Part shown: one piece after another, positions 26,722 through 54,739 of the stretch
How the letters are laid out: every line of letters begins with the position of its first letter
Numbering within the stretch: the first letter of the stretch is position 1
NCBI GenBank assembly: GCA_963829725.1
Contig: CAWHJW010000005.1
Coordinates: forward strand, 369,976 to 433,975
Direction of reading: 5' to 3'
DNA from: an uncultured Actinomycetes bacterium
Lineage (GTDB): Bacteria > Actinomycetota > Actinomycetes > Streptosporangiales > Streptosporangiaceae
DNA length: 64,000 bases
Made by a program: the position numbers and the translations under genes
The notes under the pieces: generated by a model
Databases searched by the model: none
What the model was told of the DNA's origin: nothing
The model's input: only the letters and a program-made list of their open reading frames with translations

Positions 26722-29217
26722 TCAGGCTGGGACGACGTTCACCAGCTTGGGCGGCCGGACGATGACCATCCGGGCCTCCCGCCCGGCCAGCGCCCGGGCC
26801 ACCCCTGGCGTGGCCAGCGCCAGCTCACGCAGCTCGTCCTGGCCGATCCCGGGCGGCACCTCCAGCCGGTCCCGTACCTTCCCGGCCACCTGCACCACGC
26901 AGGTGACCAGGTCCTCCTCCAGCAGCACCGGGTCCGCGGCCGGCCAGCCGGCCAGCGCCACCGACGGCTGGTGGCCCAGCAGCTCCCAGCACTCCTCTGC
27001 TGTGTACGGGGCGAACAGCGACAGCAGCACGGTCAGGGTCTCCGCGGCCTCCCGCACGGCAGGGTCCCGGGCGCCCGGGCCCGAGTCGATCGCCTTCCGG
27101 GCCGCGCTGGTCAGCTCCATCAGCCGGGCCACGGCGACGTTCAGCCGGTAGGCCTCCAGCAGCCGGGTCACCTCGTCGATGGTCCGGTGGGTGACCTTCC
27201 GCAGGGCCCGGTCGCCGTCCGCCGGACCGCCGTCCCCGCCGCCAGCAGCCGCCGCGGCCACGTCGGCGGCGACCCGCCACACCCGGCCCAGGAACTTGAC
27301 CTGGGCCTCGGGCTTCATGTCCGCCCAGTCGATGTCATCCTCCGGCGGGCTGGCGAAGACCATCGTCAGCCGGATGGCGTCCACCCCGTGCGCGGCCAGC
27401 TGCTGGCCCAGATCCACCCCGTTGCCCAGGGACTTCGACATGGCCCGGCCCCGGTTGATGACCTGGCCCTGGTTCAGCAGCCTGGTGAACGGCTCACCGA
27501 AGTCCACCATCCCCATGTCCTGCAGCACCTTGACGAAGAACCGGCTGTACAGCAGGTGCAGGATGGCGTGCTCGACGCCGCCGACGTACAGGTCCACGGG
27601 CGCCCAGCGGCGCACCGCGGCCGCGTCGAACGGCCCGTGCTCATACCCGGGCGAGCAGTACCGCAGGAAGTACCAGGACGAGTCCACGAAGGTGTCCATG
27701 GTGTCGGTGTCCCGGCGGGCCGGGCCGCCGCACTTCGGGCACTCCGTGTTCACCCAGTCGGTGGCCGCCGCCAGCGGCGACACACCCTTGGGGGCCAGGT
27801 CCTGGCCGCGCAGGTCGGGCAGCACCACCGGCAGCTGGTCGTCCGGGACCGGGACCTCGCCGCATGCGGAGCAGTACAGGATCGGGATCGGCGTGCCCCA
27901 GAACCGCTGCCGGGACAGCAGCCAGTCGCGCAGCCGGTAGTTCACCGCGCCGCGCCCCTGGCCGTCCGCCTCCATCATCTCGATGATCGCGGCGATGGCC
28001 CCGGCCTTGCCCAGCCCGTCCAGCGGCCCGGAGTTGACCAGGCTCCCGTCCCCATGGGTGGCGGTCCCGGTCTCGGCCGGGTCGGGTTCCCCGGTCTCCA
28101 CCACGACCCGGACCGGCAGGCCGAACTTCCTGGCGAAGTCCAGGTCACGCTGGTCGTGCGCGGGCACCGCCATGATCGCGCCGGTGCCGTAGTCGGGCAG
28201 CACGTAGTCAGCCGCCCAGACCGGCAGCCGCTCGCCGTTCACCGGGTTGATGGCGTACCGCCCCAGGAACACGCCGGTCTTCTCCCGGTCCGCTGACTGC
28301 CGCTCGATGTCGGTCAGCTTGCGCACCTGGCCCAGGTACTCCTCCAGGGCCTCGCGGTGCTCCGGCGCGCAGATCTCCGCGGCCAGCGCCGAGTCCGCGG
28401 CCACCACGAAGAAGGTGGCCCCGTACAGCGTGTCCGGGCGGGTGGTGAATACGGTGACCGGCTCCGCGTGCCCTTCGATCTCGAACCGGACCTCGGCGCC
28501 CTCGGAGCGGCCGATCCAGTTGCGCTGCATCAGCAGCACCCGGTCCGGCCACGCGCCCTCCAGCCGGGCCATGTCGGCCAGCAGCCGCTCGGCGTACTCA
28601 GTGATCTTGAAGTACCACTGGGTCAGCAGCCGGCGCACCACCTCGGTGCCGCACCGCTCGCACCTGCCTGCGATGACCTGCTCGTTGGCCAGCACCGTCT
28701 GGTCGTGCGGGCACCAGTTGACGTACCCGTCCTTGCGGTAGGCCAGGCCGCGCTCGTGCAGCCGCAGGAACAGCCACTGGTTCCAGTGGTAGTAGGACGG
28801 GTCGCAGGTCCGCAGCCGCCGGGACCAGTCGAAGGACACGGCGTACCGGCGGAACGAGGCCGCCTGGGTCTCGATGTTGGCGTAGGTCCAGTCGGCGGGG
28901 TGGGTGTTGTTCCGGATCGCCGCGTTCTCCGCGGGCAGCCCGAACGCGTCCCAGCCGATCGGGTGCAGCACGTTGTGGCCGCGCTGGAAGTAGTAACGGG
29001 CCAGCGCGTCCGCGATGGCGTATGCCTCCGCGTGGCCCATGTGCAGGTCACCCGACGGGTACGGGAACATGTCCAGCAGGTAGGTGCGCGGGCGGCTGTC
29101 AGCGGGGTCGTCGCCGGCCCGGAACGGGTCCAGCGCCTCCCAGCGCTCCTGCCACTTCTCCTGGATGTCGCGCGGATCGTAGTGAGCTGCCCGCTCGGCA
29201 CTTTCGGCGGCTGTCAT
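26722..29217 (-). CDS. leuS: leucine--tRNA ligase
   Basis: [17 protein letters not shown] is the HIGH-type motif and [10 protein letters not shown] the KMSKS-type motif. Other typical blocks include [12 protein letters not shown] and [16 protein letters not shown]. The ORF is an uninterrupted 831 aa. Confidence 0.95.
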
Positions 29218-29257
29218 GGTTCTTCCCTCGGGACGTGAATCGGCTCTGCTCCGGCAT

Positions 29258-29283
29258 GAAAAAGCCCCCCGGTCACGAGGGGC
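29258..29283 (-). terminator. intrinsic terminator / candidate attenuator about 35 nt upstream of the leuS start
   Basis: The minus strand reads GCCCCTC-gtgacc-GGGGGGC followed by TTTTTC. U-tracts are rare in this genome. Confidence 0.6.
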
Positions 29284-29313
29284 AGCCGCGCCAACGACAG
29301 GTCAGCGGCGCGG

Positions 29314-29343
29314 CTAGGTAAGGAGCAGCCGGGCAGAACGCAT
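29314..29343 (-). CDS. candidate leaderless leader peptide MRSARLLLT
   Basis: ATG CGT TCT GCC CGG CTG CTC CTT ACC TAG. A TACCCT -10-like hexamer (29350-29355, minus strand) sits 6 nt upstream of the ATG. Three consecutive Leu codons lie directly before two hairpins and the terminator. Confidence 0.35.
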   Translation of the reverse strand: MRSARLLLT

Positions 29344-29464
29344 GATCCCAGGGTAGCGCACCGCGGCCAGCAGTGCCGCAGGGTAGCGCTCACCCGGACG
29401 ATCCCCTGGCACGAACAGCAAACCCGCTGCTTAACGAACCGATGGTGGCACTGCCCCGCCCCGG

Positions 29465-29872
29465 TCAGCCGCCTGCCGCCGCCGCGGCCAGCTTGGCCAG
29501 CGCCCCCTGCATGGCCTGGACGGGCCCGGCGACCGCCGCCGCCAGCCCGTGCCGGGCGGCGATCCAGGCCGGGTCGTTGTAGCTGAGCCAGGTCTGGCCG
29601 TCGTCGTCGGCCCAGGCGAGCACCTTGAGCGGCAGGTCGATCCCCGCGGTCTGGGCCCCTTGCATGAGCGGGGTGCCGCCGCGCGCCTGGCCGAAGATCA
29701 GCAGCTGGGTGGGGCGGAGTTCCATGCTTACCTCGGCCGCCCCGGCCGCGTGATCCACCCGCGCGAACACCTGCAGGCCGGCCGCCTCCGCCGCCTCGGC
29801 CAGCCGGTCGATCGTCTGGGGGACGGGGTAACTGCTCGGGACGGTGATCAGGCCGTCGGGCATGGTGAGCAC
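29465..29872 (-). CDS. DUF302 domain protein
   Basis: 135 aa: ..VPQTIDRLAEAAEAAGLQVFARVDHAAGAAEV..LLIFGQARGGTPLMQ..GIDLPLKVLAW.. Confidence 0.75.
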   Translation of the reverse strand: MLTMPDGLITVPSSYPVPQTIDRLAEAAEAAGLQVFARVDHAAGAAEVSMELRPTQLLIFGQARGGTPLMQGAQTAGIDLPLKVLAWADDDGQTWLSYNDPAWIAARHGLAAAVAGPVQAMQGALAKLAAAAAGG

Positions 29873-36295: not shown

Positions 36296-37777
36296 TCAGG
36301 CGGGCAGCCGTTCCGGGCCCGCCTGGGGTCCGGCCCGGCTGGCTCGCCAGGCCGCCTCCGCCTCGCCCATCGGGGTAGCCGGCGGACCCTGCATGAACGG
36401 CCAGATCTCCTCGGCGATGCCACGCCAGTCCGCGGTCGCGGCCAGTTCGCCCAGGATCGCGAACAGGCCCAGGTTGATCCGCTGCAGGATGACGTAGGAC
36501 CGGGGCACGCTCACGTACGCCGCCAGCGGGCTGCGCAGGTCGAAGAACCGCCGTACCACCGCCGAGGCGTAGTCCCCGGTCATGGTCACCGGGCCCGGCC
36601 GGCGGACCGTGTCGTAGAACACGGCCATGTGCTCAACGACGGTCTCGGTGCTCAGCGGCGTGTCAGGGCGCAGGAACCCGGCCTGGATCATGCTGGACCG
36701 GAACGCCTCCGGGTCATCCTCCACGCACAGGTAGCGCACCATGTCCATCAGCGGCTGCAGCTCGCCGGGGCTGAAGTGCTTGACCAGCCCGAAGTCGAGG
36801 AACGTCACCCGGCCGCCCCCATGGAACAGGTAGTTGCCGGGGTGCGGGTCACCGTTGAACGCCTGCGCCTCATACAGGCTCCGGAAGGTGAACCGGTAGA
36901 TGGTCTCCGCGGCCAGGTCCCGCTCGTGCTGGGACCAGCTGGCCAGCTCAGCGAACCGGGCGCCGTCGGCCAGGTCGGTGGTCACCACCCGCCGGGTGCA
37001 CAGCTCGCCGACGATGTCCGGGATGTGCACGGTCGGGTGGCCCCGGTAATGGTCGGCGAACAGCTGCTGGTTGCGGGCTTCCCGGCGGTAGTCCAGTTCT
37101 TCCAGCACGCGCTCCCGCAGCTCGCCGAGCAGCTCGTCCACGTCCTGGCTGGGCGCGGTGATCCGCAGCATGCGCCGCAGCAGGGCGACGTTCTGCAGGT
37201 CCGCGGCAATGGTCTCGGCGATGCCGGGGTACTGGACCTTGACGGCGACGGCCCGGCCGTCCCGGGTGATCGCCCGGTGCACCTGCCCGATCGAGGCGGC
37301 CGCGATGGGCTCCCCGTCCCACCGCGCGAACACCTCCTCGGGCGGGCGGCCGAACTCCTCGGTGATGACGCCCGCGGCCAGCTCGGCGGTCATCGGCGGC
37401 ACGCTGTCCTGCAGCCGGCTCAGCGTCCGGCGGACCGCCGGGGACAGGCCGTCGTCCACGTAACTGGCCATCTGGCCGATCTTCATCAAGACGCCCTTCA
37501 TGGCGCCCAGGGTGGTGGCGACGTCCTCGGCGGTCTGCAGCGCGAGGTCGTTGCGCAGCTGCTGGCGGTGCTCGCCGGCCAGGATGAACAGCCGCGGCGC
37601 GTTGCCCGCGTAGCGGACCCCGCCGCGCACCGCGAGCCGCACCGCGGCGCCGCCCCGGGACATCCGGAGCCGCAGCGGGCGGCCGTGGCCCGGCACCCGC
37701 CAGCCCAGCCGCCGGCCGAGCAGGACGAGGCCGGCCAGCGAGGCCCCGATGGTGAACCCGGTGACCAGCTTTCTCAC
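36296..37777 (-). CDS. ABC1/UbiB/AarF family atypical kinase
   Basis: ..MKIGQMASYVDDGLSP..EPIAAASIGQVHRAIT.DGRAVAVKVQYPGIAETI..VVTTDL..FNGDPHPGNYLF..VTFLDFG.. Confidence 0.85.
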   Translation of the reverse strand: MRKLVTGFTIGASLAGLVLLGRRLGWRVPGHGRPLRLRMSRGGAAVRLAVRGGVRYAGNAPRLFILAGEHRQQLRNDLALQTAEDVATTLGAMKGVLMKIGQMASYVDDGLSPAVRRTLSRLQDSVPPMTAELAAGVITEEFGRPPEEVFARWDGEPIAAASIGQVHRAITRDGRAVAVKVQYPGIAETIAADLQNVALLRRMLRITAPSQDVDELLGELRERVLEELDYRREARNQQLFADHYRGHPTVHIPDIVGELCTRRVVTTDLADGARFAELASWSQHERDLAAETIYRFTFRSLYEAQAFNGDPHPGNYLFHGGGRVTFLDFGLVKHFSPGELQPLMDMVRYLCVEDDPEAFRSSMIQAGFLRPDTPLSTETVVEHMAVFYDTVRRPGPVTMTGDYASAVVRRFFDLRSPLAAYVSVPRSYVILQRINLGLFAILGELAATADWRGIAEEIWPFMQGPPATPMGEAEAAWRASRAGPQAGPERLPA

Positions 37778-38784
37778 GGGCGCCGCGCCGCGCGCGCCCG
37801 CAAGGCGATCCGCTGCCGGGCTTCCAGCACGCCCGGCTCGCCCATGAACACGGTGTCCAGCACGCCGAGCGCCTGGCGGATCTCGGCCCGCCGGGCGTCG
37901 GTCAGCGGCGGCACCTCGTACCCGTACATCTCGCGGGCCCAGTCAGGCAGCGTGCCGAGCGCGGCGTGCCGCACGTCCTGCCAGATCTCGGCGATGTCGG
38001 CCTCCAGGCCGGGCGGGTCGAGCAGGTAGTCCATGGATTCCCGGGCCGCCGGGGTGCAGCGCAACTCGGGCCTTACCGCGCGCAGGTAGGCATCGAGGGC
38101 CGGAACGCTGTCCGGGACGCGGTCGCGGGGCACCCCGACGAGTTCCGCCGCAGTCACTTGTTCCGCGACAAATTGCCCGCTCTCCTCAGCTGACAATGCC
38201 GTCCCGAACTGTGCGGCGGCGGCGAGGCCAGAATCGATGAAGGTGGCGTGCACGTAGAGCAGCAGGGCCGGGTCGCTGGCCGCGTACGGCTGGCCGGTCA
38301 CCGTGTCCACCCCGGTGACATGGTCGTGGATGCGCCGCACCCGGCCCGCGGCCCGCTCGGCGGCGGCCCGCTCGGCGAAGCTGACCGTGGCCAGGTAGGC
38401 GGAGGTGGCGGCCAGGCGGCCGACGGGATCCCGGCGCCAGTTGCTGTGCTGGTCCACCCCGGCCATGGCTAGCGGGTGCAGCGCCTGCAGCAGCAGCGCG
38501 CGCAGGCCGGCCACCGGCGAGGACAGGTCCGTGCTCACCCGCCAGGTGACGCTGCCGGGGCCGAAAAAACCCTCGTCCGCCGGGGCGTCCGGGATGCTGG
38601 CCGCATAGGCGGCGGCCGACCGGGCGACCAGGTCGGCCGCGGCCGCGTACGGGTCCGCGGTCACCGGGCTGGCCTGGTCATCGTGGCATGCAGGGTCATC
38701 GTGGCATGCAGATGCGGGGTCCTCATACCAGCCAAAATACCCAGCCACGGCGGGACCAAGGCCGGCCCGGACCTGGTACCGCAC
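37774..38784 (-). CDS. MpaB/DUF2236 family oxygenase-like protein
   Basis: ..FFGPGSVTWRVSTDLSSPVAGLRALLLQALHPLAMAGVDQHSNWRRDPVGRLAATSAYL..RVRRIHDHVTG.. A 4-bp overlap links it to the downstream kinase gene. Confidence 0.75.
   Translation of the reverse strand: MRYQVRAGLGPAVAGYFGWYEDPASACHDDPACHDDQASPVTADPYAAAADLVARSAAAYAASIPDAPADEGFFGPGSVTWRVSTDLSSPVAGLRALLLQALHPLAMAGVDQHSNWRRDPVGRLAATSAYLATVSFAERAAAERAAGRVRRIHDHVTGVDTVTGQPYAASDPALLLYVHATFIDSGLAAAAQFGTALSAEESGQFVAEQVTAAELVGVPRDRVPDSVPALDAYLRAVRPELRCTPAARESMDYLLDPPGLEADIAEIWQDVRHAALGTLPDWAREMYGYEVPPLTDARRAEIRQALGVLDTVFMGEPGVLEARQRIALRARAARRP
38676..38711. repeat. 18-bp perfect in-frame tandem duplication in the MpaB-like gene
   Basis: ggtcatcgtggcatgcag occurs twice. 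It is translated as ACHDDP-ACHDDQ in the N-terminus. Confidence 0.9.
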
Positions 38785-38893
38785 CGTGCTGGCTCAAACT
38801 GAGAACCGCCCGGCTGGTGAGCAGGGGTACGGATGATGCAACGGCCTGCACCACGTGCCGCACTGGTGCCACCGTCCTGCGAAGGAGCAGCCG

Positions 38894-54663: not shown

Positions 54664-54739
54664 TGGTGGGGCCGATGGGATTTGAACCCATACTGCCAGG
54701 ATCCTAAGTCCTGTGCCTCTGCCATTGGGCTACGGCCCC
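54664..54739 (-). tRNA. 76-nt tRNA, anticodon UAG (Leu/CUA by anticodon), short variable loop, encoded CCA
   Basis: GGGGCCG-TA-GCCCAATGGCAGAGGC-A-CAGGA-CTTAGGA-TCCTG-GCAGT-ATGGG-TTCAAAT-CCCAT-CGGCCCC-A-CCA. The 7-bp acceptor, 5-bp anticodon stem and 5-bp T stem are perfect. U33, G37, GG in the D loop and TTC in the T loop are present. Confidence 0.85.

Follow-up and report, generated by a model that had tools for sequence, protein, structure and literature searches.

The window analysed here is a stretch of 64,000 nucleotides (64 kb) from an uncultured actinobacterium, and all positions given without a prefix refer to it. On its minus strand lies leuS (26722–29217), which encodes a leucyl-tRNA synthetase (LeuRS) of 831 amino acids with 80–85% identity to LeuRS of Streptosporangiales and Trebonia-like organisms, and which is the gene proposed to be regulated. 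The upstream neighbour is a DUF302 gene on the same strand (29465–29872; Pfam PF03625, E = 2.8e-19) that ends in a TGA at 29467–29465 and falls outside the element described here. The interval between this gene and the leuS ATG (29217–29215) is 247 nt, and the element occupies its minus strand.

Read in the direction of leuS, the interval contains two exact copies of the 11-mer GCGCTACCCTG, at 29379–29389 and 29349–29359, and exactly two occurrences were found, in agreement with the original prediction for this locus. The proximal copy carries a -10-like hexamer, TACCCT (29355–29350), whose TAnnnT position is conserved, and 6 nt separate it from the ATG (29343–29341) of a mini-ORF (29314–29343). 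This reads ATG CGT TCT GCC CGG CTG CTC CTT ACC TAG and encodes MRSARLLLT, with its three Leu codons, CTG CTC CTT, at 29328–29320; the hexamer and the mini-ORF were both read on the minus strand as predicted. The constant presence of a start codon (ATG or GTG), length changes in whole codons and likeness to LeuL2 (see below) point to a leuL-like leader peptide.

The mini-ORF runs into hairpin 1 (29284–29315), a GC-rich stem of 9–10 bp supported by folding and covariation, whose arms AGCCGCGCC and GGCGCGGCT occupy 29315–29307 and 29292–29284. Pairing begins with the AG of the mini-ORF stop codon, so that the predicted 9-bp hairpin with a 5' arm overlapping the stop is present. Hairpin 1 abuts, with only 0–1 unpaired nt between, an intrinsic terminator (29259–29283) with the sequence GCCCCTCG-TGAC-CGGGGGGC followed by T5; its stem covers 29283–29264 and the T-run 29263–29259. 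This assignment rests on covariation and on a terminator scan, which gave three overlapping calls against 0.4 expected in shuffles.

The terminator is close to leuS, as had been proposed, with the T-run ending 41 nt rather than about 35 nt before the ATG. That this leaves little room for a further promoter was also borne out, since the 41-nt spacer has no TA dinucleotide and hence no TANNNT -10 candidate. A simple promoter scan of the leader, of a kind not designed for actinobacterial promoters and uninformative in this GC-rich organism, gave no sigma-70 consensus. Within the spacer, the segment CCGGAGCAGAGCCG (29241–29254) is complementary to CGGCUGCUCC in the mini-ORF and pairs in the minimum free energy (MFE) fold, making a long-range helix possible. 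The leuS Shine-Dalgarno sequence (SD), GAGGGAAG (29222–29229), could be read directly, and relatives have a purine-rich SD at the same place. The MFE of the window leader was -65.1 kcal/mol (z = -2.8 against shuffles). An Rfam scan of the leader region returned no family match up to E = 10, only sub-threshold chance matches; an anti-hemB match was rejected, as it scored 23 bits against a gathering score of 49.5.

Conservation of the leader upstream of leuS

To place the element in a wider context we compared it with two sets of relatives. A scan with the LeuRS N-terminus, with one genome per species, gave 80 actinobacterial loci, the closest of which came from Streptosporangiaceae and Trebonia-like MAGs (80–85% amino-acid identity). 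Searching metagenomes with a degenerate 23-mer yielded a further 120 loci (114 distinct leaders), and 109 of them could be followed to a leuS start. The same arrangement was found upstream of leuS in many relatives, both by eye and with a regular expression, and the Leu codons, hairpin 1 and the terminator were conserved there, as the original prediction had required of an alignment of relatives.

We aligned 63 leaders and derived from them a covariance model, which had a single match in the 64-kb window (29253–29357; 100 bits, E = 9e-29). In 31 of the 80 species it gave one match directly upstream of leuS, 0–300 nt away, and it added Propionibacteriales (Microlunatus and Nigerium, with the peptides MHRQELLT and MQCVALLT) and further Micrococcales. 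The sole additional strong match (L013:6597-6695) encodes VRLVLLLR and precedes a second, divergent leuS paralog, whose N-terminus is 40% identical to the window LeuRS (E = 6e-23). Since even this match lies in front of a leuS, the element is specific to that gene. The second leuS of L013, an uncultured Actinomycetota MAG, begins some 3.7 kb downstream of where the first one starts (L013:6597-7134); its leader has kept hairpin 1 and has no obvious terminator.

The gene upstream of the leader differs between lineages. It is a cyclopropane-fatty-acid-synthase-like (CMAS) methyltransferase in L005 and a glycerol kinase in L027, and the neighbour lies on the opposite strand in L007, L008, L042 (PAP2), L053 and L060 (AlkZ-like). 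Because the neighbour varies and is often divergent, the terminator can be assigned to leuS. On this comparison of sequences, what is conserved across actinobacterial orders is a single unit made up of the predicted promoter, start codon, Leu run, hairpin and terminator.

To judge the mini-ORF independently of its coding sense, 32 covariance-model matches were examined without imposing a reading frame. In 30 of them a start codon (25 ATG, 5 GTG) follows TAnnnT, at 6 nt in 28 and at 7 nt in 2; the resulting ORFs have 8–16 codons, and 25 of the 30 contain at least two consecutive Leu codons. The 109 metagenome leaders behaved similarly, with a spacing of 6 nt in 102 and 7 nt in 7, and with 79 ATG and 30 GTG starts. 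In the 63-leader alignment, differences in mini-ORF length between lineages are whole codons. The TAnnnT–start spacing is the signature expected of a leaderless transcript, and it suggests that in this organism the 5' end would lie at the start codon. Codon 2 (29338–29340, minus strand) is CGT in most leaders, and CGT makes up 3.6% of Arg codons in the window genes; the codon may be constrained by its place near the 5' end of a leaderless mRNA, or it may be a second rare codon.

The peptides of relatives include MRAVRLLLT (L002), VRTVRLLLT, MRPVRLLLS, MRPGTLLLSGPRRP, MRTRLLLGPPR and MHVQLLLPEPR, together with MRAILLLS (Arthrobacter), MNAHRLLLPGPR (Frankiaceae), MRTFLLLDRPR (Nocardioidaceae) and VTTVVGLLLTRPR (Pseudonocardiaceae). 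There are exceptions: some relatives have only two Leu codons, the Leu run has been lost in L008, and L074 lacks an obvious terminator.

The duplicated 11-mer did not share in this conservation. Its distal copy lies 30 nt upstream of the conserved one, and a second exact copy within 100 nt has a chance of about 1.5e-4 (estimated from base composition). However, only 2 of the 109 related leaders have a similar upstream sequence and the other 107 have nothing comparable, contrary to the proposal that the duplication is part of the element. A conserved operator or tandem promoter was therefore rejected. The distal copy is a lineage-specific duplicate of the -10 region, and may be a second, tandem promoter giving a leadered transcript.

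Helices, spacing and leucine codons

The RNAalifold consensus of the 63 leaders contained exactly two helices, hairpin 1 and the terminator. Together these had 97.9% of cells paired and 10 of 17 pairs compensatory, which was reached in 0 of 500 shuffles, and no slid register came near it. Compensatory pairs made up 6 of 10 in hairpin 1 and 4 of 7 in the terminator, the latter with 98% of cells paired.

The position of the Leu codons relative to these helices is strikingly fixed. Counted back from the first consensus pair of hairpin 1, the last Leu codon begins at 8 nt in 57/57 leaders and the first Leu codon at 14 nt in 56/57. The gap between hairpin 1 and the terminator is 1–2 unpaired nt in all 57; in 48 the stop codon overlaps the hairpin base, and in the remainder it falls inside the hairpin. 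Hairpin 1 itself is of variable length (23–48 nt). When the third Leu codon occupies the A site, the hairpin base is at about +11 from the P site. Given this rigid spacing, a ribosome whose A site is at a Leu codon would leave hairpin 1 intact. One at the stop codon, by the same geometry, would have to have unwound it, and such an arrangement is that of a leader-peptide attenuator.

The choice of Leu codons was equally distinctive. In the covariance-model set the leaders use CTT 35 times, CTC 23 times, CTG 20 times and CTA once. Among Leu codons of the window genes, CTT accounts for 1.3–1.9% and CTG for 72–75%; in the 34 other high-GC3 ORFs of the window the values are CTG 72%, CTC 23% and CTT 1.9%. 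In the window leuS, all 77 of 77 Leu codons are CTG (P ~7e-12 against the local background), and a similar skew is seen in relatives (L005, 62/64; L007, 65/66; L008, 66/67; L010, 54/55). At least 85% CTG was found in 12 of 29 high-GC leuS genes with a leader versus 1 of 29 without one (Fisher p = 0.001, not corrected for phylogeny), and CTG usage differed between the two groups (Mann-Whitney 8e-7, likewise not phylogeny-corrected). Rare CUU and CUC in a leader ahead of a purged leuS fit the idea that attenuator leaders carry codons sensitive to starvation and that the genes induced by them avoid the same codons.

ARAGORN placed a tRNA-Leu(UAG) gene in the window, at 54664–54739 on the minus strand. 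It also called a tRNA-Pro(AGG) at 38577–38669 (plus strand), which at 93 nt is unusually long and overlaps a high-GC3 ORF (37774–38793); this call may be spurious.

Relation to known leaders and the search for alternative pairing

Attenuation of leuS has been considered before in Streptomyces. For S. coelicolor and S. avermitilis, leuS was predicted to be preceded by 'classical attenuators' (Seliverstov et al, 2005; PMC1262725), and in S. lividans TK24 RNA-seq identified, ahead of leuS, the leaderless leader peptide LeuL2, MRAVRLLLSEPR, with a hairpin and then a uridine stretch after its ORF (Droste et al, 2021; PMC8079986). The window leader likewise has a short ORF with three consecutive Leu codons directly upstream of leuS, with a hairpin and a U stretch after it. 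MRSARLLLT shares 6 of its first 9 residues with MRAVRLLLSEPR, and the peptides MRAVRLLLT, MHVQLLLPEPR and MNAHRLLLPGPR of relatives bridge the two. By sequence, the window leader plainly belongs to the same family as the Streptomyces leuL2-leuS attenuator, and it is of a kind already described. It differs in coming from a different order and in being cut to 9 codons by the UAG at the base of hairpin 1. Since the ancestral in-frame TGA persists four codons on (TAG CCG CGC CGC TGA), the 9-codon form is a truncated 12-codon form. The transcription start at the beginning of the leader was mapped in S. lividans (PMC8079986), whereas in the window the leaderless state is predicted from the TAnnnT spacing. 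A second difference concerns the switch: the earlier prediction drew an antiterminator hairpin (PMC1262725), whereas in the leader family of the window hairpin 1 does not overlap the terminator.

Looser parallels exist elsewhere. T-box leaders (leuS and ileS in Firmicutes; translational, ileS in Actinobacteria) are also cis-acting leaders of synthetase genes that respond to tRNA charging. However, a T-box binds the tRNA directly, through its specifier loop and T-box motif, whereas sensing in the window leader would go through the ribosome; the Rfam scan detected no T-box (RF00230) stem I specifier loop or antiterminator motif up to E = 10. In the enterobacterial attenuators (the leu leader, RF00512; pheST; trp) a ribosome likewise reads a run of cognate codons, rare ones included, before an intrinsic terminator, and the E. 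coli leu leader uses the rare CUA. In contrast to these, the window ORF is predicted to be leaderless, is much shorter and has no 1:2, 2:3 and 3:4 pairings, and the RF00512 covariance model had no match in the window leader, so the likeness is functional only. In mycobacteria, translation of specific codons in leaderless short ORFs (the polycysteine ORFs and the whiB7 uORF) tunes the downstream gene, as proposed here. The amino acids and targets are different, and the Cys ORFs are reported to have no obvious terminators (PMC1262725).

We looked for a structure that might compete with the terminator. Folds were computed for the nascent RNA up to the U-tract with the ribosome masked at successive positions, and the terminator persisted in the MFE fold with the ribosome absent, on Leu1, on Leu3 and on the stop codon. 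Inspection revealed no competing partner for either terminator arm, the four arms being C-rich, G-rich, C-rich and G-rich in turn, and the classical 2:3 versus 3:4 switch is missing, as hairpin 1 and the terminator do not overlap. The constrained folds thus gave no clean antiterminator, just as none had been found by eye in the original prediction. Since there is no alternative pairing, the link from stalling to read-through is one that we infer.

Pairing across the terminator was a further possibility. In the MFE fold of the window leader, CCGGCUGCUCC of the ORF is paired with GGAGCAGAGCCG, which comes directly after the terminator, and a 5' segment, AUGCGUUCU, with the region of the leuS start. 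Several relatives have complementarities of their own: CGGGACCC/GGGUCCCG in L007, GCCAGGCUG/CAGCCUGGU in L011, CGGCUGC/GCAGCCG in L156 and CGCCUGC/GCAGGCG in L155. A subgroup has UGCACC/GGUGCA, and GUCCGGCU/AGCCGGAC, about 26 nt before the leuS ATG, is common; in L088 the partner halves GCAG and CCGGAC flank an inserted hairpin. Ranking by contiguous helix favoured the cognate partner of the ORF. However, RNAduplex pairing of the ORF with the post-terminator segment was close to that of shuffles (z near -0.6), the variable part of the ORF gave a mean percentile of 0.43 against non-cognate ORFs (p = 0.058), a contiguity test for GCAG plus the complement of codon 5 was negative (p = 0.39), and some leaders (L101, L187) lack the partner segment. 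Long-range pairing of the ORF with the post-terminator segment is thus possible, and the folding results are suggestive only.

Two related ideas were discarded. Sequestration of the leuS SD or start by the ORF was rejected, as masking the ORF opened nothing consistently (23 leaders, p = 0.66). A second uORF beginning at an AUG, GUG or UUG just past the U-tract, with the 3' arm of the terminator as its SD, was rejected because its frames and stops are inconsistent in relatives.

Other features of the post-terminator region were recorded. The motif CCGGAC(C)GAU lies about 26–28 nt upstream of the leuS ATG, before the SD, in 47 of 62 distinct sequences of the Trebonia-like clade, among them L003, L081, L088 and many others; its equivalent in the window is GAGCCG (29241–29246). 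It occurs mostly where the mini-ORF holds CCGG or CGGCU and is missing where that codon differs. In an Actinophytocola MAG (L074:1245-1364), the leader encoding VTTVVGLLLTRPR has kept hairpin 1 and has no recognisable terminator; CCUGCUCC is instead paired with GGAGCAGG, which lies some 60 nt further downstream. This leader may be a variant that acts on RNA structure instead of termination.

Proposed control of leuS by the leader

The results presented above suggest that the element is a leucine leader-peptide attenuator of leuS, orthologous to Streptomyces leuL2-leuS, in an actinobacterium of the Streptosporangiales/Trebonia-like group, and we consider this identification likely. It is carried by the anatomy of the leader, its conservation, the covariation of its helices, its exclusive linkage to leuS, the rigid spacing, the rare codons and the homology to a leader that RNA-seq had mapped as leaderless and attenuated. 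The original prediction of a mini-ORF attenuator of leuS is supported by this comparative evidence, except that it spoke of a 'translational attenuator' where a ribosome-mediated transcription attenuator is the appropriate term.

Where transcription starts in this organism, which way the response runs and, most of all, how stalling leads to read-through are points that we infer, as follows. Transcription would start at or beside the ATG, 6 nt past TACCCT, so that the 5' end of the RNA is the start of the 9-codon ORF. A 70S ribosome would translate MRSARLLL, and the Leu codons, including CUC and the rare CUU, would report the supply of charged tRNA-Leu. With Leu-tRNA plentiful, the ribosome would unwind hairpin 1 to reach the UAG and then be released; the adjacent terminator would form, and most transcripts would end at about 85 nt. 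With Leu-tRNA scarce, the ribosome would wait on the Leu codons with hairpin 1 intact directly ahead of it, termination would be reduced, RNA polymerase would enter leuS and more LeuRS would be made. In the literature searched, we found no experimental dissection of this mechanism or of leucine-dependent read-through for the leuS leader.

Several other explanations were weighed against this one. The hairpin and T-run might do nothing more than terminate the DUF302 transcript, with the mini-ORF a chance frame; the terminator does lie downstream of DUF302 on the same strand, and this was the fallback offered in the original prediction. It is contradicted by the way the unit stays with leuS whatever its neighbour: it is kept behind CMAS methyltransferase, glycerol kinase, AlkZ-like or PAP2 genes, with the neighbour on the opposite strand in at least five lineages, it recurs before the second leuS paralog, and the position of the start codon and the Leu run are conserved. 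We regard this explanation as having next to no chance of being correct. Hardly better placed is the suggestion that the ~85-nt RNA or hairpin 1 serves as a trans-acting sRNA or a protein operator, for example in LeuRS autoregulation, with no codon sensor. The near-invariance of the stem base (GCCGC/GCGGC) and of the CCCCUC/GAGGGG arms beyond what pairing needs would be in keeping with such a role, but part of it is due to the metagenome search pattern, there is no Rfam family, tRNA-like or T-box signal, and the conserved start codon, frame and Leu codons would be left unexplained; we therefore think it very improbable.

Codon sensing could also operate with a different outcome. Under a reversed, pyrBI-like logic, a ribosome keeping pace would open hairpin 1 and suppress termination, so that leuS expression falls when Leu-tRNA is scarce. 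The classical logic has no available antiterminator, and ORFs of 12–16 codons stop 7–22 nt inside hairpin 1, which would bring the terminating ribosome near the terminator. However, in 48/57 leaders the stop falls at the hairpin base, leaving over 30 nt to the terminator, and rare Leu codons enriched in the leader and purged from leuS fit a starvation sensor. Known synthetase controls, moreover, respond positively to uncharged tRNA, and we consider the reversal improbable. A somewhat better case, albeit still an unlikely one, can be made for control of translation or RNA structure in the manner of ermC, in which codons 3–8 of the mini-ORF, with their anti-SD-like CUCCUU, pair with a segment that follows the terminator and precedes the leuS SD. 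Such pairing would be broken by a stalled ribosome, with an effect on leuS translation or mRNA stability, and the terminator would set no more than a basal level. The MFE pairing in the window (z = -2.8), the lineage-specific complementarities and the retention of such a helix in L074 without a terminator are consistent with this. Against it, the tests of cognate versus shuffled or non-cognate partners were weak (p = 0.058 and p = 0.39), masking the ORF failed to open the leuS initiation region in the 23 leaders (p = 0.66), and L101 and L187 have no partner segment.

Returning to the leucine attenuator, we can offer a tentative hypothesis, to which we give a rather low probability, for how it might dispense with an antiterminator: the stalled ribosome would sterically block the terminator, and the leader would act as an isoacceptor-specific sensor. 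With hairpin 1 looped out and the third Leu codon in the A site, the RNA path that leads from the P site to where the first U run ends measures 36–39 nt in 80% of leaders, with a median of 38. An RNA path of 36–39 nt is within the range reported for contact between ribosome and RNA polymerase. Hairpin 1 would then be a looped-out spacer of variable length that holds the waiting ribosome near the polymerase at the U-tract; its unwinding would free about 30 nt of slack, contact would be lost and termination would follow. As to the sensor, the leader is rich in CUU and CUC, read by tRNA-Leu(GAG), and leuS is purged of them, so that LeuRS could still be made when this tRNA is uncharged.

These results indicate that the leuS leader is an old and widespread actinobacterial device and no peculiarity of Streptomyces, and they provide a correct annotation of the leuS 5' region for a poorly studied actinobacterial lineage. 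Comparison of more than 100 distinct leaders exposes the rigid spacing, the preference for rare codons, the avoidance of these codons in leuS and the lack of a classical antiterminator, and it makes the question of how a stalled ribosome suppresses the terminator directly testable.
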